Part shown: in pieces, positions 2,786 through 35,382 of the stretch
Position numbering within the stretch: position 1 is the stretch's first letter
How the letters are laid out: each line of letters begins with the position of its first letter
Assembly: GCF_004010195.1 (NCBI RefSeq)
Contig: NC_057719.1
Span: 13,815,105 to 13,850,486, forward strand
DNA from: Chiloscyllium plagiosum
Lineage: Eukaryota
DNA: 35,382 nt
Direction of reading: 5' to 3'
Notes under the pieces: model-generated
What the model was told of the DNA's origin: nothing
The model's input: the letters and a program-made list of their open reading frames with translations, nothing else
The model's database searches: none
Translations under genes and position numbers: made by a program

Positions 2786-3117
2786 GACAAAGTTTTTGGC
2801 ACTGAAAATATTGATTGCTGTTAGCGATGCTCTTTGTGAAATGAAAGGCAGTGATGGATTCTTTCTGCAAGTTACAGGATGGTGTTCTCTAGCAGAATGT
2901 GATATAACACTATTTTGTTTTCACTAGGATACCAGCAAAATACTCTGTGTCACACCTTACTGCAGCACTCATTACCACAGCAGTGCTCCCACCTGGGGCA
3001 GGAGTTCACGAATTTGCACGTACAACTAGCTGGACCAGGACAATACAACCTTTCAGCACAGAACACAGACACGTTTCAGCTCCTTTAATAACTGTCACAG
3101 CAGAATTATAGGAACAG

Positions 3118-3321
3118 TGTTGAAGAGTGTGGTGCTGTAAAAGCACAGCCGGACTGGCAGCATCCGAAGAGCAGGAGAGTCAATGTTTCGGGTGTAACTG
3201 TTCATCAGGAACTTGAAATGTCGACTCTCCTGCTCCTCGGATGCTGCCTGACCTACTGTGCTTTTCCAGCACCGCATTCGCGACTCTGATCTCCAGCATC
3301 TGCAGTCCTCATTTTCTCTGC
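3118..3321. mobile_element. Fold-back mini-PLE (inverted pLTR pair)
   Basis: Left half is the reverse complement of the right half; flanked by attataggaacag (3105-3117) and attgtagaaacag (3322-3334). Confidence 0.75.
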
Positions 3322-3354
3322 ATTGTAGAAACAGCCTGAAATGCTTTTGTAACT

Positions 3355-3989
3355 TCTGGGATCTAGATTAGAATGGTGCCGGTAAAGCACAGCAGTTCAG
3401 GCAGCATCCGAGGAGCAGGAAAATCGACGTTTTGCGCAAAAGCCCTTCATCAGGAATACAGGCAGAGTGTCTGCAGAGTGGAGAGATAAATGAGAGGATG
3501 GTGGTGGTGGGGAGAAAGTAGCATAGAATACAACAGGTGAATGGGGGTGGGGATGGAGGTGATAGGTCAGAGAGGAGTGTGAAGTGGACAGGTGGAAAAG
3601 GAAGATAGGCAGGTAGGACAGGTCATGAGGGCGGTGCTAGGGTGAGTTGGGGAAGGGCAAATGAGGAAACTGATGAAATCCACATTGATGGCATGGGATT
3701 GAAGTGTTCCGAGGCGGAAGATGAGGCGTTCTTCCTCCAGGGGTCGGGTGGTGAGGGAACGGCGGTGGAGGATGCCCAGGACCTGCATGTCCTCGGCAGA
3801 GTGGAAGGGGGAGTTGAAACATTGGGCCACAGGGCGGTGGGGTTGATTGGTGCGGGTGCCCCGGAGATGTTCCCTAAAGTGCTCTGCTCGGAGGCGTCCA
3901 ATCTCCCCAATGTAGAGGAGACCATCCTGATGCGGTCTCCTCTACATTGGGGAGACTGGATGCCTCCTAGCAGAGCGCTTTAGGGAACA
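3355..3989 (-). mobile_element. PLE 3' fragment (GIY-YIG end plus pLTR) turning into an inverted copy
   Basis: Minus ORF ...LEEERLIFRLGTLQ...; inverted arms 3868-3923 and 3934-3989; runs into an N gap. Confidence 0.85.
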
Positions 3990-6127: not shown

Positions 6128-6597
6128 GTGCTCTTCCAGAGCAAAGAATTGACCCTGACCGAGTGTTGCAGACTGGCACATTCCAAGGTCCAGGAGTATG
6201 CGCTCAGCGATACGTTACAGCTTGGGACAGCTGCTGCCAAGGTGCAGTGAGGAAAGACCACCATCTGAGGTCTTCCAAATGAAATTAATTGGGGGTCTGT
6301 CCATTATCAAACACCCCTCGTGCCACAATGTACGTAAATATAGTCTTGTATGTGTAAGAGATGCCTTTGGTTAGTTGGGATGGAGTCAAACTCAAAGGTT
6401 TGTTTGTTTACTTGATGTGGGACTGTTCAGAACGGAACTGCAGTTGTGATTCTAAATACATATATATGAGCATATCTAAAATGATCAAAAAGAAATCACT
6501 TTTTTATTTTAAAAGTATACTTTTTTCATTTTAAAAAACCTTGTGTCTACACAAAATGACTTTTTATGAATTAAGTACATTTTTGAAATGAAAAGAA
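6128..6597 (+). mobile_element. Tx1/L1-type LINE 3' end
   Basis: 6128-6268 translates VLFQSKELTLTECCRLAHSKVQEYALSDTLQLGTAAAKVQ*GKTTI*, resembling the Tx1 ORF2 C-terminus; A-rich end near 6590. Confidence 0.6.
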
Positions 6598-6609
6598 GTC
6601 TTTCTTTTT

Positions 6610-6775
6610 GATCATTTTAGATAAGCTCATGGATATGCAAGGAATAGAGGAATATGGACCAAAGCTAGATGGAAGGAATGATGACTTTAGTTTGGCGTCA
6701 TGTTTGGCACATCATTGTGGGCCGAATGGCCTGTTCCTGTGCTGTACTGTGGGACATTCTATGTGCTATTTTATG
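6610..6775 (+). mobile_element. CR1 LINE 3' end
   Basis: 'gggccgaatggcctgttcctgtgctgtac...ttctatg' terminal motif. Confidence 0.7.
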
Positions 6776-7589: not shown

Positions 7590-7782
7590 AAAACGAAAAC
7601 AGAGACATGCTGGAGATCTGAAACCAAAATGGAAATGACTGGCAAAATCCAGCAGCATCTGTGGGAAGAAAGCTGAGTTGATGTTTCGAGTCTGGCGACT
7701 CTTCATCAGAACTCCAGTTAAATCTGTTGTCTTCCCACAGACACTGCCCGACCTGTTGAGTTTCGCCAGCAATTTCTGTCCT
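7590..7782. mobile_element. Fold-back mini-PLE (family C)
   Basis: 'ctggcaaaa...catctgtgggaaga' is inverted against 'tcttcccacagacac...ttcgccag'; HHR core on the minus strand. Confidence 0.65.
7676..7713 (-). ncRNA. Minimal hammerhead ribozyme motif (family C)
   Basis: Minus strand agtt-CTGATGA-a-gagtc-gcca-gactc-GAAA-CA-TC-aact: perfect 4-bp stem I and 5-bp stem II; ACGT palindrome decayed to ACAT. Confidence 0.7.
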
Positions 7783-9918: not shown

Positions 9919-10043
9919 AATTTCCCTTAATAATCTACAAATGTCCAAGTGACTGTTAATTTTGTCTTGAATTTTTGTCATGGTTTCTAATAGCTTTCCC
10001 AGTAAACTGACTGGCTTGGCCCCATGTGCCTTGTTAACATGAT

Positions 10044-10211
10044 GTAAAAACAATGACTGCAGATGCTGGAAACCAGATTCTGGATTAGTGGTGCTGGAAG
10101 AGCACAGCAGTTCAGGCAGCATCCGAGGAGCTTTTGCCCGAAACATCGATTTCGAAGCTCCTTGGATGCTGCCTGAACTGCTGTGCTCTTCCAGCACCAC
10201 TAATCCAGAGT
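10044..10211. mobile_element. Fold-back mini-PLE with 14-bp TSD
   Basis: cttgttaacatgat at 10030-10043 and 10212-10225; internal inverted arms of about 55 bp. Confidence 0.85.
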
Positions 10212-10836
10212 CTTGTTAACATGATACCTATTGTATGCACACTGTATCTGCTGTCCATTACTCTATCGTCAAGTGGTTGCTTTGCATTTCCCCACCTAGT
10301 AGGAATGCAATTCAACTATCTCCTCTTCAATGCTTATCTTCAAACACCTATCTCTCCTTGGGGGATGGTTTGAAGTTCTGGAAGGATTTCAGGCTGAATA
10401 GCAAACTGTCGTTCCACTTTGTGAATTGTCATCTCTGTGGCCAACAAGTTGTGAAGTGGGACTTGAATCTGCTGCCAGTCTGATTCGTAAACAAAGGTGC
10501 TGACATTGCTCCGTTAGAGTTTTGCCTGCCCACCTTTAGTTCAAATCTAGATAACGGAAATGTCAATACATAAGGCCTTTGACGTGAATAAATCAGCATT
10601 CTGGGTCTCCATCTTTATCGCCATCTCTGGGTCAAAACAGAGGATACTGGAAAATGCTACCAGGTCAGGCAGTATATGTGAAGAGAGGGTTGCCATTTTG
10701 AATCCATGGCAACCCTGCTTCGGCTTTACAGTGGGAAGTGCTGGGGGTGTTGAGGAAACTGACAACCTCCCCTTAAGTCTATCACTGACCTGTAATCTCG
10801 GTGGGATCAGAGAATGTGAATTCAACCATACATTTC

Positions 10837-11995
10837 ATGATTTGGAGATGCCGGTGTTGGACTGGGGTGTACAAAGTTAAAAATCACACAACACCAGGTT
10901 ATAGTCCAACAGGTTTAATTGGAAGCACACTAGTTTTCGGAGCGTCACTCCTTTATCAGGTGATAGTGGAGGGCTCAATCCTAACACACAGAATTTATAG
11001 CAAAACTTTGCAGTGTGATGTAACTGAAATTATACATTGAAAAATTGATTGTCTGTTAAGTCTTTCATCTGTTTGAATACCATGATAGTTTCACTTCTTT
11101 CATGCGTAAATCACAAAACCTTTTTTTAAAAAGTTGCATTCTCAGGTTACTGTTAACAATGGTGATAGCTAGACAATATGTTGAAGGTGTTAGCTCCCTG
11201 TGTTCTCTGTCTATGGAATGATGTTTAGATTAATTCTAATCTAAAAAGTGAGATAATGGAGTTTTACATGAATTCATGCAGTTTTTGAGCAGATATAATC
11301 TGCAGTAACCCTTAAACTCTCTTCAACTCCCACATCTGACAAGAAGTACATATCGCTCTATTAAAGGCCATTTTTGCTCCTTCATAATCTACAGACCCAG
11401 AAAATAACACCGTCTTATTCCTCTACAAACACTGCCCCCGATTAATTTTCTAGTTATGGCTTATATTTGAAGTTTAATCAAGAGACATATCTCCAAAAAC
11501 ATATAATCAAGAAAGAACCCACTCCACTCACTACTGCAGATTCTCTGTAGGCTACACTTAAAACAACAATTCACTTATCTGATTCTGTGCTGTGAACTTT
11601 GCCTAACAGTTCCTCCAAGATCAGTTGTGAATGTCACTGTTTGTTAATTTTCCCAGATGCACTCCTTCCCAGATGCAATCCTTCCCAGATGCACTCTGAT
11701 GTCCAGTGAAACATGAATTCAAACAGCAAGGGTAGTAACTGTGCAGGTTCCCTCTCTCTCTCTCTCTCCTGCACTGTCCTCACCATGTGCTTCCTTTGTC
11801 TGTTCTTCTCCCTTTTAAAACTGCTGTTGTTTTGACTTTTCTCCCCCAAAGTTCCAAAACAATGCAACAGCATATAAGACAGTAATTGCTGCTCCTGTAA
11901 TTTGAGGAAATCACCTCCAGCACCTAAAATACCTCAAAAAAGGAGCAGCTGTTCCAGCCAGAAATTTTTCCCATCCTCCATCTTGGATTACCCAG
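10837..11995 (-). mobile_element. PLE family B terminus and adjoining repeat sequence
   Basis: 10837-10945 matches the arms of 17808-18005; mutated HHR core at 10928-10962 (minus); right boundary uncertain. Confidence 0.5.
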
Positions 11996-15081: not shown

Positions 15082-15430
15082 GGGGGTAGCACAGTGGCTC
15101 AGTGGTTAGCACTGCTGCCTCATGGCACCAGGGACCTGTGTTCGATTCCAGCCTCGGGTGACTGTCTGTGTGGATTGTGCACATTCTCCCTGTGTCTGTG
15201 TGGGTTTCCTCTGCGTGCTTCAGTTTCTTCCCAAAGATGTGCAGGTCAAATGAATTGGCCATGCTAAATTGTCCACAGTGTTCAGGGATGTGTAGGTTAG
15301 GTGAATTAGTCAGGGGTAAGTGTACAGTAATAGGCTGGGGGAATGGATCTGGGTGAGTTACTCTTCAGAGGGTTGGTGTGGACTTGTTGGGCTGAAGGAC
15401 CTGTTTCCATACTGTAGGGATTCTGTGATG
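15082..15430 (+). mobile_element. HE1-like SINE inserted in CR1
   Basis: A and B boxes, V-type core, CR1 tail; aagcct on both flanks. Confidence 0.9.
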
Positions 15431-15479
15431 AAGCCTTCACTGCTCAAGAGAAAACAACCCAAGTTTTTCTGATATGTCG

Positions 15480-15745
15480 TAGATTAGATTAGATTACTTA
15501 CAGTGTGGAAACAGGCCCTTCGGCCCAACAAGTCCACACCGATTTACCCCTTACCTAACACTATGGGCAATTTAGCATGGCCAATTCATCTGACCTGCAC
15601 ATCTTTGTGTTGTGGGAGGAAAGCGGAGCACCCGGAGGAAACCCACGCAGACATAGGGAGAACGTGCAAACTCCACACAGTCAGTCGCCTGAGGCGGGAA
15701 TTGAACCCGGGTCTCTGGCGCTGTGAGGCAGCAGTGCTAACCACT
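15480..15745 (-). mobile_element. HE1-like SINE
   Basis: (TAGAT)n tail; reverse-complement B box GGAATTGAACC. Confidence 0.9.
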
Positions 15746-16890: not shown

Positions 16891-17544
16891 TTCTATGAGA
16901 CATCATTACATAGTATCTTTTCTAGCTATTGCTGGCCAACAATAATGCCAACTCCTTGGTTGTGTCTTGAGAATTCATTCCATGCTAAAGTACAGGACAC
17001 TTTAATTCTGCAGCAAAAATGATTATCCTTCATGGGGAAAGCCAATGATGGGCCATCTATTCCAGGGTAAATTAACAGTTGGACAACATTTACAGAGTTC
17101 ACGCTCACCGATGCAATCAATGATGTCTTCTCAAGACAAATGGCCATTACCAACCTGGTTGGGTGACCAACCCCTCAAAGGTGCTTTTCTGAAGCCTCAC
17201 AATATATTAAGCCCACCTCCAAACTTCCGGGGGTCTTGTCCCACCTGAAAGCTTCCATTTGTTTGCACCCATCCTCTACCTTGTCCTGAAAATGTGATGT
17301 TCAGTTCGATATTTTTAACAGCTGGGTTCATGGAATGAAGAATTATCCCCATTATACACCTGACTAATGGACAAAAATCCAGGCCAATGATAGGCTATAT
17401 TATAGTCAATTTATAAGCCAAGTGGATGGAAACATAAAATGACAAAGAGGCATTGATAGGTGAAGTAAAATGGCAAAATTCTGACAAATGGTTTTAATTA
17501 TATGTGTTAATCCACTCTCTGAATTGAAATAGTACAAAGAAACA

Positions 17545-17632
17545 AAAATAGTCAAACTCAGCAGATCTGGCAGCATCTGTGGAGCGAAAGCAGAATTAAC
17601 GTTTTGGGACCAGTCACCCTTCTTAGAACAGT
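17545..17632 (-). mobile_element. PLE family C terminus fragment
   Basis: Reverse complement resembles 1030-1110; degenerate HHR. Confidence 0.55.
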
Positions 17633-17764: not shown

Positions 17765-18612
17765 TAATTTCATATATCCAAATTTGATGATGATGCAAAG
17801 TTAAACATGATGTGGAGGAGCCAGTGTTGGGCTGGGATGTACAAAGTTGAAACTCACACAACGCCAGGTTATAGTCCAACAGATTTATTTGGAAACACTA
17901 GCTTTTGGAGTGCTCCACACTCACCTGATGAAGGAGCAGTGCTTCAAAAGCTAGTGTTTCCAAATAAACCTGTTGGACTATAACCTGGTGTTGTGTGATT
18001 TTTATCAAAGTTAGACAGCATTGTAGGCAGTGTAGGTAATAGCATAAAATTACAAAGGAATATTGATAGACTGAGTGAATGGGCCAAACTGTGGCAGATG
18101 TACTTCCGTGTAAAAGCAAATGTGAGGTTATTCATTTTAGACCAAAAAAGGTTAGATCAGGGTACTTTCATGATAGTATGAAGTTAAATCCAGTGGATGT
18201 CCAAACAGATTTGGGCATTCAAATACATACATCCTTTAAATATAGGAAACAGATGCAGAAAATAATCAATAAAGTTAATGGAATGCTGGCTTTTATATCG
18301 AGAGAACTGGATTAGAAAGATGCAGAAGTTATGTTGCAGTTTTTCAAAACCCTGGTTAGATCTCTCTTGGGTAATGCGAGTAGATATGGGGACCACACCT
18401 TAGCAAGGAATACATTGACCTTGGAGGGAGTACAACATAGGTTTACAAGTTTACAAGTTACAAGACTTCAGAGGTTGAGTTATGTGAACAGATTATACAA
18501 ATTAGGCCAGTTTTCTGTAGAATTTGGAAGGTTAAGGGGTGATCTGATCAAAGTCTTCGAGAGATTAACAGGAAAAGACAGGGTAGATAAAGATAAACTA
18601 TTTCCACTAGTT
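17765..18612 (+). mobile_element. CR1 RT fragment interrupted by a mini-PLE
   Basis: ISKFDDDAKL|insert|...IDRLSEWAKLWQM...KCEVIHF...RLRGDLIKVF. Confidence 0.88.
17808..18005. mobile_element. Fold-back mini-PLE (family B) with 12-bp TSD
   Basis: caaagttaaaca (17796-17807) and caaagttagaca (18006-18017); arms 'tcacacaacgccaggttatagtccaacag' and its reverse complement; HHR-like core at 17922-17956. Confidence 0.85.
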
Positions 18613-19455: not shown

Positions 19456-20372
19456 TAGGGAGGAGGGACTTGGGGGAGGGGCGTTGGGAATGCGATAGGT
19501 GTAAGGAATTTAAGGTGAGGGTGATAGGCCAGAGAGGGGGTGGAGGCGTAGAGGTCGGGAAGAGGATTTCAGATCAAGAAGGCAGTGCTGAGTCCGAGGG
19601 TTGGGACTGAGATAAGGTGGGGGGAGGGGAAATGAGGAAACTGGAGAAATCTGCATTCATCCCTTGTGGTTGGAGGGTTGCTAAGCGGAAGATGAGGCGT
19701 TCTTCCTCCAGGCGTCGTGTTGCCATGGTCTGGCGATAGAGGAAGCCAAGGACCTGCATGTCCTTGGCGGAGTGGGAGGGAGAGTTAAAGTGTTCAGCCA
19801 CGGGACGGTTGCATTGGTTGGTGCGGGTGTCTCAAAGGTGTTCCCCGAAACGTTCCGCAAGTAGGCGGCCTGTCTCCCCAATGTAGAGGAGGCCACATCG
19901 GGTGCAGCGGATGCAGTAAATGATGTGTGTGGAGGTGCAGGTGAATTTGTGGTGGATATGGAAGGATCCATTGTGGGGCCTTGGAGGGAAGTGAGGGGGG
20001 AGGTATGGGCACACGTTTTGCATTTCTTGCGGTTGCAGGGGAAGGTGCTGGGAGTGGATGTTGGGTTGGTGGGTGTGAACCTGACGAGGGAGTCACGGAG
20101 GGAGTGGTCTTTCCGGAACGCTGATAAGGAAGGGGAGAGAAATATATCCTTAGTGGTGGGGTCTATTTGGAGGTGGCGGAAATGACAAAGGATGATACGA
20201 TGTATCTGGAGGTTGGTGGGGTGGTAGGTGAGGATCAGTGGGGTTTTGTCCTGGTGGTGATTGGAGGGGCGGGGTTCAAGGGCAGAGGAGCGGGAAGTGG
20301 AGGAGATGCGGTGGAGAACATCGTTAACCACGTCTGAGGGGAAGTTGCGGTCTTTGAAGAAGGAGGCCATCT
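19456..20372 (-). mobile_element. PLE (Neptune-like) linker and GIY-YIG endonuclease, left arm
   Basis: CNRKKCKTC zinc motif; FTCTSTHIIYCIRCTRCGLLYIGETGRLLAERFGEH (GIY-YIG); frameshifted. Confidence 0.92.
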
Positions 20373-21290
20373 AGATTACACCTCCTCCCACCCTGCCCCC
20401 CGTAAGAACGCCATCCGATATTCCCAATTCCTTCGCCTCCACTGCATCTACTCCCAGGAGGACCAATACTGAACAACCCAGATGGCCTCCTTCTTCAAAT
20501 ACAGCAATTTCCCCTCAGACATGGTAGACGATGCTCTCCACCGCATCTCCTCCACTTCCCGCTCCTCCGCCCTTGAACCCTGCCCCTCCAATCGCCACCA
20601 GGACAGAACCCCACTGGTCCTCACCTACCACCCCACCAACCTCCATATAGATCATATCATCCGTCGTCATTTCCGCCACCTCCAAACGGACCCCACCACC
20701 AGGGATATATTTCCCTCCCCTCCCCTATCAGCATTCCGGAAAGACCACTCCCTCCGTGACTCCCTCGTAAGGTCCACACCCCCCACCAACCCAACCTCCA
20801 CTCCCGGCACCTTCCCCTGCAACCGCAAGAAATGCAAAGCTTGCACCCACACCTCCTCCCTCACTTCCCTCCAAGGCCCCTAGGGATCCTTCCATATCGA
20901 TCACAAATTCACCTGCACCTCCACACACATCATTTACTGCATCCGCTGCACCCGATGTGGCCTCCTCTATATTGGGGAGACAGGCCGCCTACTTACGGAA
21001 CATTTCAGAGAACACCTCTGAGACACCCGGACCAACCAACCCAACCNNNNNNNNNNNNACCTCTCCGCCCCCACCCCCTCTCCGGCCTATCACCCTCACC
21101 TTAACCTCCTTCCATCTATCGCATTCCCAGAGCCCATCCCCCAAGTCCCTCCTCCCTACCTTTTATCTTAGCCTGCTTGGCACACCCTCCTCATTCCTGA
21201 AGAAGGGCTCATGCCCGAAATGTCGATTCTCCTGCTCATTGGATGCTGCCTGACCTACTGTGCTTTTCCAGCAACACATTTTTCAGCACT
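20373..21290 (+). mobile_element. PLE RT C-terminus, GIY-YIG and pLTR, right arm
   Basis: DYTSSHPA..NAI.YSQFLRL, CNRKKCKAC, IIYCIRCTRCGLLYIGETGR; stop at 20881; HHR motif 21193-21228; small gap 21047-21058. Confidence 0.92.
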
Positions 21291-22254
21291 GAACCAATAC
21301 ATATACTATCACCAACTGTAGTGACCCTGGACAGAAGGCACAATAATTGTGCAGAACAATAGTTCTGAAGGAAGAGTCTGCGACTCGCTGGGTATGCCTT
21401 TAGAATCTGTGAATGGCGTGTTCTGAGTGCATGGCAAGAAGAAATACCCACTCCAAATTCCGCTTGTGATGTGCAATTTAAAGTCGTCATTCGTTATAGT
21501 AACAATCTCAAAGTCATTGATGAAGCGGTCAATCTGAATCAATAGCAAAATGCCTTGGTACGGTTTTGAAGATTGGATATTATTGTTAGATTCTAAAAGT
21601 CAGCACACATCATGATGCAACATGCATTAAAACCCCAGTGGGCGTCTAATTGAGTCTCTGAATACTATTTCATCCCACCTGATGGCATTTGAGTGAACAC
21701 TCCCTTCCATTCTCGATCTCTATCATATTCAAATGATTAGGAATTTGGATCAAGCTAGTGACTTGTCCTGATTTTAAAAAAACATGTTTGAAAACAACCC
21801 TAACCAGACTCTGCAGCTTGTAACAGCAGTAAATGTCACGTACCATTTGGTACAGAAGAAAGAGCCCGAAGGGTTGTCAAGGTTCAACAATCAGTTCATA
21901 AGTCAGTCTTTTCAACCACATAATTATGCACATTACTTTGCTACAGTCTGCATACATGCAAGACTTTTTTTCCTACATGACTGAGTGTTTTCTTTATGCC
22001 CGATTTAGGCCAAAAGCAATCAATGTGAGTGAACTCAGTACAAACTTTCAAATATGAAACACCCGCAGACACAATGATTTGAAGCAATCGATCAAGGACA
22101 GTTAAAATAGGATCTCATTTTCTTAACCTAATGAACAATGCACTGGAAAAAATGTTTGACATGAACTAACTATTAACTTCTGTATGGATCAGATTGAAAT
22201 ATTGAAATTAAAAATGCAAGAGGCATGCGAGTGAACAATAGGCATAGGAGATAA

Positions 22255-24200: not shown

Positions 24201-25134
24201 GATGCTGAAATAGGTTGGAAACTTGTCGATAAAAAGTTGTGTAAAAAGTGCATGAAAAATTAGTGAAAAGGAATTGATGTAACTTTTTGTACTTTATTGT
24301 CGAAAAATGTCGTTTACCTTGTGATGAAATGCATCCAAGAATGACTTTCAATCTCCATGAGAGGTGGAGACATGTAAAGATTATCTATGCTTTATTCAGA
24401 AATACAAACAAGGCAAATGGAAGCTTTGAAACTGCCATGTTGCAGAGAATATATTAGTTTTTTTAAAACAACGTAAAGGGTAAGTGGAAGTGTGTGGTCA
24501 TCACTTACTGGTTACAAAAGGTCATTAATCCACTTACTGGATTCAATCCTTCTGGGGGAGACACAAGCACCAAGTGTTTTGGGTTAAAACACTGCTTAGC
24601 AAAATTCTTTATTGTCAACTATTGTTAGATACAAAACTGCCTAAAAGGCAAAAAGAAGAGTGAAACTTGCAAATTACATGCACTGGTCTGAAAAATTACT
24701 TGTTTTTTCAACTGGTTTTTGCTTCTGTGTGTGAGAAAGGGGCATTTGCACTCAGATCTTCAGAAAGCCAACAAGCTTTCAGTAAACACCCATATGCCAC
24801 TGTTTATCATCATAGTCTTGATTATGTTGAGGAGATTGGTCAGTCTTACTCCTTCCTTCTGTCTCTGGAAAGGAACTGCACTCAAAGACTGAAAAGTAGG
24901 AATTCTAACAGAAACAAAAGCCTTGATTCTGAATGGTCAGCTACCAAATTGATGCTGTCCACAGTCAACACAAACATGATATCTTCACCAGGAACAAAAC
25001 ATTCTGTGAGAAAGCCGCTTATTCCATCTTTGTAGTTTGAACTCTTGATCCTCTGAATTTGATCCTTTTTCTCTACGAATTGCTCCCATGAAATTTTAAC
25101 AGAACTGTCTGTCATGTCTGAATAAACAGCCATA

Positions 25135-25363: not shown

Positions 25364-25857
25364 TATATTAATAATTTAAAATCCATTATTAAAGAATGAG
25401 CCTGTTTAAAATAAATAAGTTTGGTATCTGGTTTATTGATGAAACCTCAGGTGGGTTTCTTTAATTTTTGTGGGTGATTAAGGTTTGGCTAACTAACCAC
25501 CACCCCTAACTTGGTCAAATTGGTCACACAAACATTTGTGACAGCTCATGGAACAGTGGACTTGATTTCCAGCATACCCTTCCCTCTAGGGTTTTGACAA
25601 TACAAACAGAGATTACTGCAATAAATTTAAGCCCAGTTACATTCATATAAAAAATGTTAAGCCTTCCTTGTGCTTGACCAAAGATAACAAAGTTGCTTTG
25701 GTAACAAATACAAATAAATTAATAGGATTGTAATATTATAGAACAGTGTTACTGCAACAAGACAAGGACATACGTTGATAGGTTATTGCTAAGTTATCAC
25801 AATATTTAGATGTTTTAAACATCATTGATATCCATTGTGGAGTTCATTCTAAATCTA

Positions 25858-26035
25858 AGGAGCAGGAGAATCGACGTTTCGGGCATGAGCCCTTCCTCAG
25901 GAATGTTCCTGAAGAAAGGCTCATGCCCGAAACGTCGATTCTCCTGTTCCTTGGACGCTGCCTGACCTGCTGCACTTTTCCAGCAACTCATTTTCAGCTC
26001 TGATCTCCAGCATCTGCAGTCCTCACTTTCTCCTA
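25858..26035. mobile_element. Fold-back mini-PLE (family A) with perfect 13-bp TSD and two back-to-back HHR motifs
   Basis: cattctaaatcta at 25845-25857 and 26036-26048; palindrome axis at 25904/25905. Confidence 0.9.
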
Positions 26036-26411
26036 CATTCTAAATCTAGCCTAGGAAGATTATCATCAGTAAAGACTCATATGCCACTTTTATCATAGTA
26101 GTTTTGTTAGGTCTATGAAGATCACCCTACATGATTATTATTTGTTTCACTTTGTGTCAGTAAGGTCAGGAAAACCTATTTAGAGTCATCTATGTTCTCA
26201 TTATGCTGCAGTTTTCCCTCCAAAATCTTAATTTTCTTGGAAATGGGTTTGCTGTCTGACAGAGGCTCATCTTGGAGCATTTGTTGAATTGGTTTCAATT
26301 CTGTGCCTTCTCCAACTTTCAACATTGACGTAATGCAACACAAATTTTCTAGCAATCCTGTGCTGGTTGATATCTGAATGCACAATTTTAGACTGAGGCA
26401 CAGCGTGTGCA

Positions 26412-28294: not shown

Positions 28295-28890
28295 ATTTTG
28301 CCTGGTCCCTTATTTAAAGGAAGATATTATTTCACTGGAGGCATTTCAGAGAAGACTCACTCGGATGATTTCCGGTATGGAGAAAATGTCTTATGAGCAA
28401 ACAGGTTGGGATTTAGCAGGATGTGAGATGATTTCATTGAAACATAGAGGGTTCTTAAGGAAAACAAAAAATAATAAAGATCGCAGCCGGTCAGGCAGCA
28501 TCCATGGAGAGAAAGCAAGCTAACGTTTCAAATCTAAATGACTCTTCCTCAGAGCTCTGATAAGGAATCTTAAGGGGCTTGACAGGATAAATACTGAAAG
28601 GATGTTTTCCCTCATAGGAGACTTTAGGACTAGAGGACACAGTCTCAGAATAATTTAAGATTGTGATATGAAAGAATTTCTTCTCTCAGCAGGTTGTGTG
28701 TCTTTGGAACTCCTTGCCACAGAGAGCTGTGGGGACAGAGATCTTATATTTAAGACTGAGATAGATAGATTCTTGGTTAGTCGGGGAATGGGCAGGAAAG
28801 TCGACGTGAGGAACGTTAGAATAGCCATAACTGGTGGAGCAGGCTCGAGGGGCTGAATGGTCTACTCCTGTTCTTGTTTCTTACAGTCTT
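28295..28890 (+). mobile_element. CR1 3' fragment with mini-PLE insertion
   Basis: 'tggtcccttatttaaaggaagat...ggactagaggacacag...ttcttctctcag...tggaactccttgcc' and the terminal motif. Confidence 0.8.
28461..28567 (-). mobile_element. Mini-PLE terminus with 8-bp TSD and HHR motif
   Basis: tcttaagg at 28453-28460 and 28568-28575; minus agct-CTGAGGA-agagtc-attta-gattt-GAAA-CG-TT-agct (28518-28556). Confidence 0.7.
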
Positions 28891-29644: not shown

Positions 29645-30325
29645 AAACTAAAAAACTGTGGATGCTGGTGAGCTAAAATAAAACCAGAAATTGCTGGAGA
29701 AACTTAGCAGCATCTGTGGCAACCCATGTCATGTGGTTATAGGACCAAGAGTTGGCGAGAATGGGTTGGCCGTGTTCCCACGCCAACATTTCTATCACAG
29801 GATTGCTGCAGCTCTCCAGCAAGGCCGAGAGCAATTTGAAGAAGACCAGCTTAACTTTCATTTGGGGACACTGGAACATCTCGGACTCAACATTGAGCTC
29901 AATAACTTTAGAGCCTGATTGTGGGTTTTTACCCATCCACACATCCAATCCTGTCATAACATGGGTTACTTTCAGCACAGAATGCCTATTCTGTCCTGTT
30001 TTTAACTCATTACCAAATATTCAGCTTTCAACCATTCCCTTGTCTGCCTATCCCATTCATAGAACATAGAACATAGAACATAGAACATAGAAGAATACAG
30101 CACAGTACAGGCCCTTGGGCCCTCGATGTTGCCTCTCTCTCTCTCCAACCTCTGTCTCCACCTATCTCAGTCCCCTCTCCCCAATGCACCCAAATTTAGC
30201 TTCAGCATATCTTCAGCAGTTTCCGAGCTGTTACTGGACTCAAAATGTGAACCCTGCTTTCTGCCAACAGATGCGGCCAGACCGGCTGAATTTCTTGAGC
30301 AATTTCTGGTTCTGTTTCAATTTTC
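29645..30325 (+). mobile_element. Old PLE (family C) 3' fragment with inverted terminus; short CR1 tail inserted at about 30057-30131
   Basis: FEEDQLNFHLGTLEHLGLNIELNNFRA* resembles LEEERLIFRLGTLQPQG; 29670-29720 is inverted against 30262-30320; (AGAACAT)n. Confidence 0.7.
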
Positions 30326-33854: not shown

Positions 33855-35382
33855 AATAGGAGGTTAGAGCAGATGAATGCATGGCTGAGGAGCTGGTGTA
33901 TGGGAGAAGGATTCACATTTTTGGATCATTGGAATCTCTTTTGGGGTAGAAGTGACCTGTACAAGAAGGACAGATTGCACCTGAATTGTAAGGGGACTAA
34001 TATACTGGCAGGGAGACTTGCTAGAGCTGCTCGGGAGGAATTGAACAGTAAGGTGGTGGTGGGGTGGTGGGGGGACCCAAGGTGATAGTGAGGAAAGAGA
34101 TCGATCTGAGACTGGTACAGTTAAGAATAGAAGCGAGTCAAACAGTCACGGCAGGCAGGGAATAAGGTAGGACTAATAAATTAAACTGCATTTATTTCAA
34201 TGCAAGGGGCCTAACAGGGAAGACAAATGAATTCAGAGCATGGTTAGAAACAAGGGACTGGGATATCAAAGCAATTACAGAAAAATGGCTCAGGGATGGG
34301 CAGGACTGGCAGCTTAATGTTTCACGATGCAAATGCTACAGGAAGGATAGAAAGGGAGGCAAGAGAGGAGGGGGAGTGGCATTTTTGATAAGGGATAGCA
34401 TTACAGCTGTACTGAGGGAGGATATTCCTGGAAATACATCCAGGGAAATTATTTTGGGGGAACTGAGAAATAAGAAAGAGATGATCACCTTTTTTGGATT
34501 GTATTATAGACCTCCTAATAGTCAGAGGGAAACTGAGAAACAAACTTATAAGGAGATCCCAGCTATCTATAAGAATAATAGGGTGGTTATGGTAGGGGAT
34601 TTTAACTTTCCAAACATAGACCTGGACTGCCATAAGTGTTAAGGGTTTAGATGGAGAGGAACATTTTAAGTGTGTACAAGAATATTTTCTGATTCACTAT
34701 GTGGATGTACCTACTAGAGAAGGTGCAAACCTGACCTACTCTTGTGAAATAAGGCAGGGCAGGTGACTGAGGTGTCAGTGGGGGAGCACTTTGGGGCCAG
34801 CGACCATAATTCTATTAGATTTAAAATAGTGATGGAAAAGGATAGACCAGATCTAAAAGTTGAAGTTCTAAATTGGAGAAAGGCCAATTTTGACAGTATT
34901 AGGCAAGAACTTTCAAAAGCTGATTGGAGGCAGATGTTCGCAGGTAAAGGGACAGCTGGAAAATGGGAAGCCTTCAGAAATGAGATAACGAGAATCCAGA
35001 GAAAGTATGTTCCTATCAGAGTGAAAGGGAAGGCTGGAAAGTATAGGGAATGCTGGATGGCTAAAGAAATTGTGGGTTTGGTTAAGAAGAAGGAAGGAAG
35101 CATATGTCAGGTATAGCCAGGATAGATCGAGTTGTTCCTATCAGAGTGAAAGGGAAGGCTGGAAAGTATAGGGAATGCTGGATGGCTAAAGAAATTGTGG
35201 GTTTGGTTAAGAAGAAGGAAGGAAGCATATGTCAGGTATAGCCAGGATAGATCGAGTGAATCCTTAGAAGAGTATAAAGGAAGTAGGAGTATACTTAAGA
35301 TGGAAATCAGGAGGGCAAAACAGGGACATGGGATAGCGTTGGCAAATGCAATTAAGGAGAATCCAAAGGGTTTTTACAAATA
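33855..35382 (+). mobile_element. CR1 LINE: end of ORF1 (SGNH esterase-like) and ORF2 AP endonuclease, disrupted
   Basis: NAWLRSWC..GFTFLDHW..YKKDRLHLN..G; then CIYFNARG, AITEKWL, YYRPPN, MVGDFNFPNID, GASDHNSIRF; stops and frameshifts; runs off the window. Confidence 0.93.

Follow-up and report, generated by a model that had tools for sequence, protein, structure and literature searches.

A 178-bp head-to-head insert in a shark genome as a probable scar of a Penelope-like element with a hammerhead motif on each strand

We analyzed a 35,382-nt stretch of DNA (hereafter the window), in which an ORF-less insert of 178 bp lies between two copies of the direct repeat CATTCTAAATCTA that are identical at 13 of 13 positions (Table 1). 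A 13-mer match of this kind has a chance of ~6 × 10−8 per offset and 2 × 10−6 across 30 offsets and is therefore not attributed to chance; the repeat is AT-rich, with A or T at 10 of its 13 bases. The insert is built of two unequal arms placed head to head, an inverted arm of 48 bp and a forward arm of 130 bp. Around an axis at 25904/5, the sequence forms an inverted repeat of 50 nt (25854–25903 and 25906–25955) with 92% complementarity. Folding of this palindrome gave z scores of −13 on the plus and −15 on the minus strand, and 0 of 200 shuffles per strand folded equally well. An earlier note on this DNA, made from the sequence, had proposed a 178-bp insertion inside a perfect 13-bp target-site duplication (TSD), a palindrome axis at 25904/5 and a hammerhead motif on each strand; the repeats, the axis and the coordinates of both motifs were all recovered as described, with hammerhead cores on both strands. 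Three mismatches lie within the 46 bases that the arms share (3.3% divergence per arm, 95% interval 0.7–9.5%), which is compatible with arms that were identical at insertion. One of them, at 25947, coincides with a site that is polymorphic in the family (C in ~31–50%) and suits two templates equally well as a later mutation. The last five bases of the left repeat agree with the element's own continuation at four of five positions, with one G–T (chance 0.02–0.03).

Table 1 Features of the insert and of related copies in the window
Feature	Position	Strand	Remarks
Left TSD copy	25845–25857		15 bp from 25843 in organism B; last 5 bases double as microhomology
Inverted short arm	25858–25905	−	48 bp, repeats the beginning of the end module; tail absent
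Minimal type I hammerhead	25869–25904	−	Core and stem II (GGGC/GCCC) intact; stem I weak; nominal cut between 25873 and 25872
Head-to-head centre GGAATGTTCC	25900–25909		At the hammerhead's 5′ edge
Second hammerhead, degenerate	25905–25940	+	A for G10.1 at 25917; nominal cut after 25936
Forward arm	25906–26035	+	Penelope-like pLTR end with ~35-nt tail; stops at the family's common 3′ end, 26033–26035
Right TSD copy	26036–26048		Direct repeat
Longer broken copy of parent family	20365–21292	+	C-terminal part of RT, GIY-YIG remnant, 3′ UTR, then hammerhead end 21194–21292
Kilobase-scale inverted partner of the long copy	19456–20372	−	Centre inside ORF
Second small inverted pair, sister subfamily	10030–10225		Exact 14-bp duplication, other centre, tail on one arm only
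Third small inverted pair	3112–3318		Other centre, tail on one arm only; flanking repeat imperfect

The forward arm has several relatives in the window, with 94% identity over 127 bp to 122–248, 89% to 21194–21292 and 79–86% to pieces at 3215, 3377, 10055 and 16443. The copy at 21194–21292 is preceded by a broken ORF (remnant 20365–21039) that matches residues 166–391 of P0001 at 62% (tblastn). P0001 is a whale-shark protein with an RVT_1 domain below the curated cut-off and a GIY-YIG domain just above it. Because the same end module lies downstream of an RT/GIY-YIG remnant, the arm is the terminal repeat of an RT/GIY-YIG Penelope-like family, recognized by its RT-then-EN domain order. A Pfam scan of five ORF pieces of the window returned 0 families, and the RT/GIY-YIG link thus runs via P0001. 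For a broader view, four of 24 public runs (DNA runs X4, X9 and X13 and the poly(A) single-cell RNA run X21, of which ~2% was used) were placed on 25600–26300 at 85% likeness, yielding 63,349–71,362 contigs per DNA run and 2,729 RNA reads, nearly all of them on the element. Family 3′ ends pile up at 26033–26035, with ~1,000 contigs per position per DNA run, and loose ends stand behind these positions in all four runs. The insert ends 119 nt from stem II. By its sequence relationships, the forward arm is the pLTR and tail of an abundant RT/GIY-YIG Penelope-like family. An ORF starting from the ATG in loop II was not retained between copies. A search with a 20-base family pattern matched 0 viral contigs and 16 metagenome stretches, all by chance, none of the 16 extending beyond ~40 bases.

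The hammerhead core pattern CTGANGA..GAAA occurs at 25877–25900 on the minus and at 25909–25932 on the plus strand. It has 12 matches in the window against 3.4 ± 2.0 expected, a number reached by one of 100 shuffles. Rfam at E ≤ 1 gave 0 hammerhead families among seven matches, and its microRNA matches in the window were below the gathering score and lay mostly on fold-backs. Both motifs contain the core elements CUGANGA, GAAA and UH, an extra base after A9 and a palindromic 15.2–16.2, and both lack helix III. They resemble in this the minimal hammerheads described in PMC4209133, which have CUGANGA/GAAA cores, the extra base between 9 and 10.1, palindromic CG at 15.2–16.2 and no helix III. Helix II of the insert has 4 bp. 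Helix I, by inspection, consists of 2 bp, a U–U and 1 bp, short of the usual 4–5 bp, and it is unfolded in the isolated motifs. The plus-strand motif has A at 25917 (position 10.1), where 78–97% of the family depth or reads have G. The G10.1–C11.1 pair closing helix II, reported as highly conserved in minimal hammerheads (PMC4209133), is present on the minus strand and lost on the plus strand. A further difference from the minimal hammerheads of that source is that each motif of the insert is masked by its antisense copy.

This masking follows from folding predictions for the transcripts. RNA from either strand is predicted to form a hairpin of ~45 bp, in which the antisense arm precedes the motif and pairs with all of it at a probability of about 1. 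Minimum free energies of the full-length transcripts were −102.5 and −115.6 kcal/mol for the two strands, and the core GAA was predicted to be unpaired with a probability of 0.001 on both. Freeing the core would cost a predicted 23 and 29 kcal/mol, and excluding the antisense arm 77 and 63 kcal/mol. For two ordinary family copies, stem II was predicted to form with probabilities of 0.91 and 0.61. The expectation that transcription from either strand would give a hairpin with one sense hammerhead is, therefore, literally true, but the motif is buried by the antisense arm, so that cleavage is unexpected. Because transcription reaches the antisense arm before the motif, and that arm then pairs with the entire motif, a read-through transcript of either strand would form a hairpin and is predicted not to cleave itself. 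Dimers should not change this: they require two same-sense motifs, each transcript carries a single buried one, and minimal hammerheads cleave poorly even when free (PMC4209133), so that again no cleavage is predicted. The lizard PAc hammerhead, for comparison, depends on the element's protein (PMC11167929). A pile-up of read ends was not seen in RNA run X21, a library type that is unreliable for cut ends. A perfect TSD with a hammerhead on each strand is, then, proof of neither youth nor ribozyme activity.

Reads from other individuals provided information on the age of the insert. Unique-flank contigs of three samples enter the inverted arm, up to 25878–25882, and the tail from 26012–26015. 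In organism B, a related species (two runs from two studies, X9 and X13), the left-flank contig reaches 25882 and the right one starts at 26012–26013, indicating a filled site, with flank pieces that diverge from the window by 2.1–2.6%. The site is also filled in a second individual of organism A. Presence of the insert in both organisms places the event before the A/B split, and it is, thus, not very young. Both organism B runs have A at 25844, which gives a repeat of 15 bp (25843–25857 and 26034–26048) and an insert of 176 bp ending at 26033, one of the three ends at which the family piles up. The simplest reading is a 15-bp duplication followed by one change in the lineage of A, or a 2-base microhomology at the priming site. 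The search for an empty site in relatives, a check suggested in the earlier note, was carried out but gave filled sites only in X4, X9 and X13; the target-site duplication is, therefore, deduced from the repeat alone. Among the runs placed on 25600–26300, no locus-specific contig crossed the palindrome centre, so the centre itself depends on the assembly of the window.

We compared eight inverted pairs in the window: this insert, 3112–3318, 10044–10211, 17850–18002, 7590–7780, 28461–28567, one at ~3930 in the endonuclease region and one at ~20368 in the RT region. The eight have eight different centres, and 0 of the four other pairs from this family or its sister subfamilies share the centre of the insert. 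The head-to-head layout was found in at least three Penelope-like families of the window. As in this insert, the short arms of the pairs at 3112 and 10044 lack the tail. A TSD search over seven intervals at six loci identified exact repeats at four (13, 14, 8 and 7 bp), an imperfect one at 3112 and none at 7600, while an ungapped search of eight intervals returned only 8–9-bp matches with one mismatch, at five intervals.

Several of these neighbors have features of their own. The kilobase-scale head-to-head pair at 19456–21292, centred at ~20368 in the RT region, meets an N gap at its left end. A minus-strand copy at 3340–3989 with a GIY-YIG remnant contains the short fold-back centred at ~3930 and likewise meets an N gap; this fold-back has a sub-threshold Rfam match to MIR477, and the fold-backs at 3157–3247 and 10107–10181 have sub-threshold matches to other microRNA models. 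A second hammerhead-bearing family, of the CCTGATGAAGGAG..AAAGCTAG type, occurs at 17850–18002 and 10878–10976 and has a fold-back of its own, accompanied by a 7-bp flanking repeat. A third, older hammerhead-bearing family is present at 1035–1140, 7590–7780, 17540–17630, 28461–28567, 29652–29722 and 30230–30317. Two of its members, 7590–7780 and 28461–28567, form inverted pairs; in the second of them one arm is very short, and an 8-bp repeat is present.

To what extent the junction recurs genome-wide was assessed from the four runs. Depth at junction base 25905 amounted to 0.50% (X4), 0.23% (X9) and 0.44% (X13) of the summed depth at 25896 and 25913, where summed contig depth is not copy number and some joints in X4 and X9 are uncounted; in the RNA of X21, 11 reads stood against 693 (1.6%). 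These values of 0.2–1.6% are upper bounds because ordinary copies also end at 25905. Among the 15 joints listed, with 343 more, 14 were of the skip type, scattered and represented by one or two contigs each, and 308 RNA reads extend before 25906 into ordinary upstream element sequence. Contigs with C at 25905 numbered 19 (X4), 22 (X9) and 30 (X13), and the centre is spanned, at single-copy depth, by individual contigs that show 8–12 differences and one or two gaps, indicating that near-identical centres recur at other loci. Since this edge is where 5′ ends cluster, independent events that happened repeatedly account for such recurrent same-register centres; a small amplified subset of same-register copies may also exist. 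RNA reads were absent from 19 of 21 flank bins, a weak result from ~2% of one single-cell run. As a side observation, A>G differences occurred at 15 of 83 places in the X21 RNA compared to 5–6 of 52–55 in the DNA runs, a nonsignificant excess (p 0.2–0.3) that provides a lead for A-to-I (ADAR) editing of family hairpins.

Considering these data together, the insert very probably combines the end module of an abundant RT/GIY-YIG Penelope-like element with a short inverted copy of itself, joined head to head, likely in one target-primed event, and has likely been inert since then because the hairpin is predicted to bury both hammerhead motifs. It is a real but ordinary remnant, one of very many such scars in a known Penelope-like layout. 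Of the two origins offered in the earlier note, the first, in which extreme truncation and inversion of a Penelope-like element gave the insert, is supported. Inverted pLTRs, one-sided tails, junction palindromes and TSDs of 8–10 bp are described for EN+ Penelope-like insertions (PMC3846280; PMC8557442), and the insertion unit of these elements comprises a pLTR, an adjacent inverted 5′-truncated copy, a one-sided tail of 30–40 bp and a TSD, the 8–10 bp being those of rotifer examples (Arkhipova et al. 2013, PMC3846280; Craig et al. 2021, PMC8557442). For the inverted ends, self-priming on an antisense template is favored in PMC3846280. The insert shares with these units a head-to-head inverted pLTR, a tail on one arm, a palindromic junction, a short TSD, junction microhomology and heavy 5′ truncation. 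It differs in having no ORF between the arms, a total length of only 176–178 bp, a TSD of 13–15 rather than 8–10 bp and a short arm that stops well before the usual short end. With a pLTR linked to RT/GIY-YIG, a minimal hammerhead, an inverted copy plus one-sided tail and an AT-rich TSD, it would nevertheless classify as an EN+ Penelope-like insertion in the tests run. Pairs of minimal hammerheads on opposite strands, 100–700 bp apart, had already been noted in 2014 (PMC4209133).

In terms of mechanism, the insert can be compared with PAc (Poseidon from Anolis carolinensis; Frangieh et al. 2024, PMC11167929), whose protein introduces nicks into both strands of AT-rich DNA. According to the same source, reverse transcription by PAc starts at +111–118 from stem II, with two start sites that bound a 30–40-nt tail, and uncut RNA is the main template. 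The insert agrees with PAc in its end ~120 nt past stem II, the tail, the AT-rich target and the uncut hammerhead kept in the copied DNA. For PAc, nicking and extension of both strands were observed in vitro. Inverted arms such as those of the insert are left unexplained in the consulted text of PMC11167929. By analogy with the PAc biochemistry, a family protein acting in trans would have nicked an AT-rich site on both strands, 13–15 bp apart, and reverse transcription would have started inside the RNA, ~120 nt downstream of hammerhead stem II. The template was apparently uncut by the ribozyme, as can be read in part from the insert itself because both arms extend beyond the cut site as far as the motif's 5′ edge. 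The cDNA would have stopped after ~130 nt, possibly where the RNA begins. Within the same event, the inverted arm may have arisen by fold-back self-copying of the cDNA or, alternatively, through another round of priming at the second nick, and its junction with the target may have formed via the five bases of microhomology (four matches and one G–T).

In L1 twin priming, the inverted part derives from a different stretch of the RNA, whereas the inverted arm of the insert duplicates the start of the forward arm. Shared with the L1 twin-priming and fold-back inversions of PMC10191854 are an inversion at insertion, its position inside the TSD and microhomology. Such fold-back inversions, which are present at a small number of L1 insertions and have been attributed to DNA polymerases (PMC10191854), provide a precedent for a different history, in which a solo pLTR stub came first and host DNA repair or a replication fold-back later added the inverted arm, with no role for retrotransposition. 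The 3/46 arm differences would be compatible with DNA-templated copying. We consider this history very unlikely, as both arms lie inside the duplication, which immediately borders the short one, the layout recurs in at least three families of the window with exact 14-, 8- and 7-bp repeats at three other pairs, and the short arm was already present in organism B. That the palindrome centre is an assembly artefact appears extremely unlikely: the arms differ at three sites, the repeat is exact and unique-flank contigs from three further samples reach into the inverted arm from the left side and into the tail from the right, even though no locus-specific contig covers the centre, the window contains 531 N and several inverted pairs meet gaps.

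The second origin offered in the earlier note, a non-autonomous ribozyme-only element, would require transcription of the entire palindrome, its copying in one piece by the Penelope protein and independent amplification. The centre accounts for at most 0.2–1.6% of the neighboring family depth and is common to none of the seven other pairs in the window; a large set of same-junction copies was not seen, and the insert very probably does not belong to a separately amplified family. A unique junction in every copy, which the note took to speak against such a family, is what the window contains, but a few same-register loci occur elsewhere. These loci (19–30 contigs with C at 25905 per DNA run, plus the spanning contigs) count in favor of a ribozyme-only element, as do the missing ORF, the clean TSD and the existence of vertebrate pLTR-derived non-autonomous retrozymes, including one chondrichthyan example (10.64898/2026.07.22.740005). 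Same-register copies vary in the central base, however, both motifs are predicted to be buried in the hairpin, one lacks G10.1, and the nearly RNA-free flank bins point weakly in the same direction. Retrozymes, moreover, are head-to-tail tandems with same-strand ribozymes and circular RNA release (Cervera and de la Pena 2020, PMC7229834; Li et al. 2026, 10.64898/2026.07.22.740005). With non-LTR retrozymes, the insert shares its shortness, the lack of an ORF, the relationship to pLTRs and a type I hammerhead, but it has one motif per strand, head to head, and no tandem array. Overall, we regard a ribozyme-only element as very unlikely. Identity as a non-LTR retrozyme was rejected, as head-to-tail same-strand hammerhead units are absent at the insert.

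Taken alone, the insert matters little, being one of very many scars whose layout has been in the literature from 2013 at the latest. It is useful as a minimal fossil of the step, still unexplained, by which inverted Penelope ends are made: both arms retain an uncut hammerhead, there is a stop at the 5′ edge of the motif, and the second junction shows microhomology. Given the abundance of such stubs in shark genomes, a locus-by-locus table could separate fold-back from two-template priming and map the start of the RNA.

One feature of the related junctions may bear on that start. C instead of G at 25905 makes up 59% (X4), 31% (X9) and 46% (X13) of the junction depth and one of 11 RNA reads. 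Seen from the opposite strand, ATTCC is then preceded by an extra G; the parent copies in the window show C at that place, and the locus itself also has C, not G, before ATTCC. The sequence TCATTCC at the 5′ edge of the hammerhead fits the initiator consensus. An internal promoter with an initiator is reported for Drosophila Penelope (PMC2377424), and in L1, capped templates are recognizable by an untemplated G (PMC6425141). Tentatively, and with more doubt than confidence, we suggest that the stubs are complete run-off copies: capped RNA would start at the A of TCATTCC, internal priming ~130 nt downstream in the 5′ pLTR would be followed by copying up to the cap, addition of a base opposite the cap and fold-back, and the extra G would be the copied cap. 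A subfamily with G before ATTCC is an equally open account of the extra G. If the run-off model is true, the stubs record in the genome where Penelope transcription starts and how inverted ends are formed, and the many hairpins would hide the ribozyme and could be a source of double-stranded RNA for silencing or editing.

The window contains further sequences of note outside the Penelope-like pairs. Palindromes at 6459–6637 and 15375–15540 lie beside or inside other repeats (self-BLAST 72–77%) and were not recognized as Penelope ends by the searches made. On the minus strand, 24885–25133 comprises ~80 open codons beside a TG repeat and is a possible host exon; a weak search for relatives among longer proteins found none in 19 candidates. 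Lastly, a near-exact 125-bp tandem duplication at 35008–35283 is located in a LINE-like ORF at the end of the window and possibly represents an assembly duplication.
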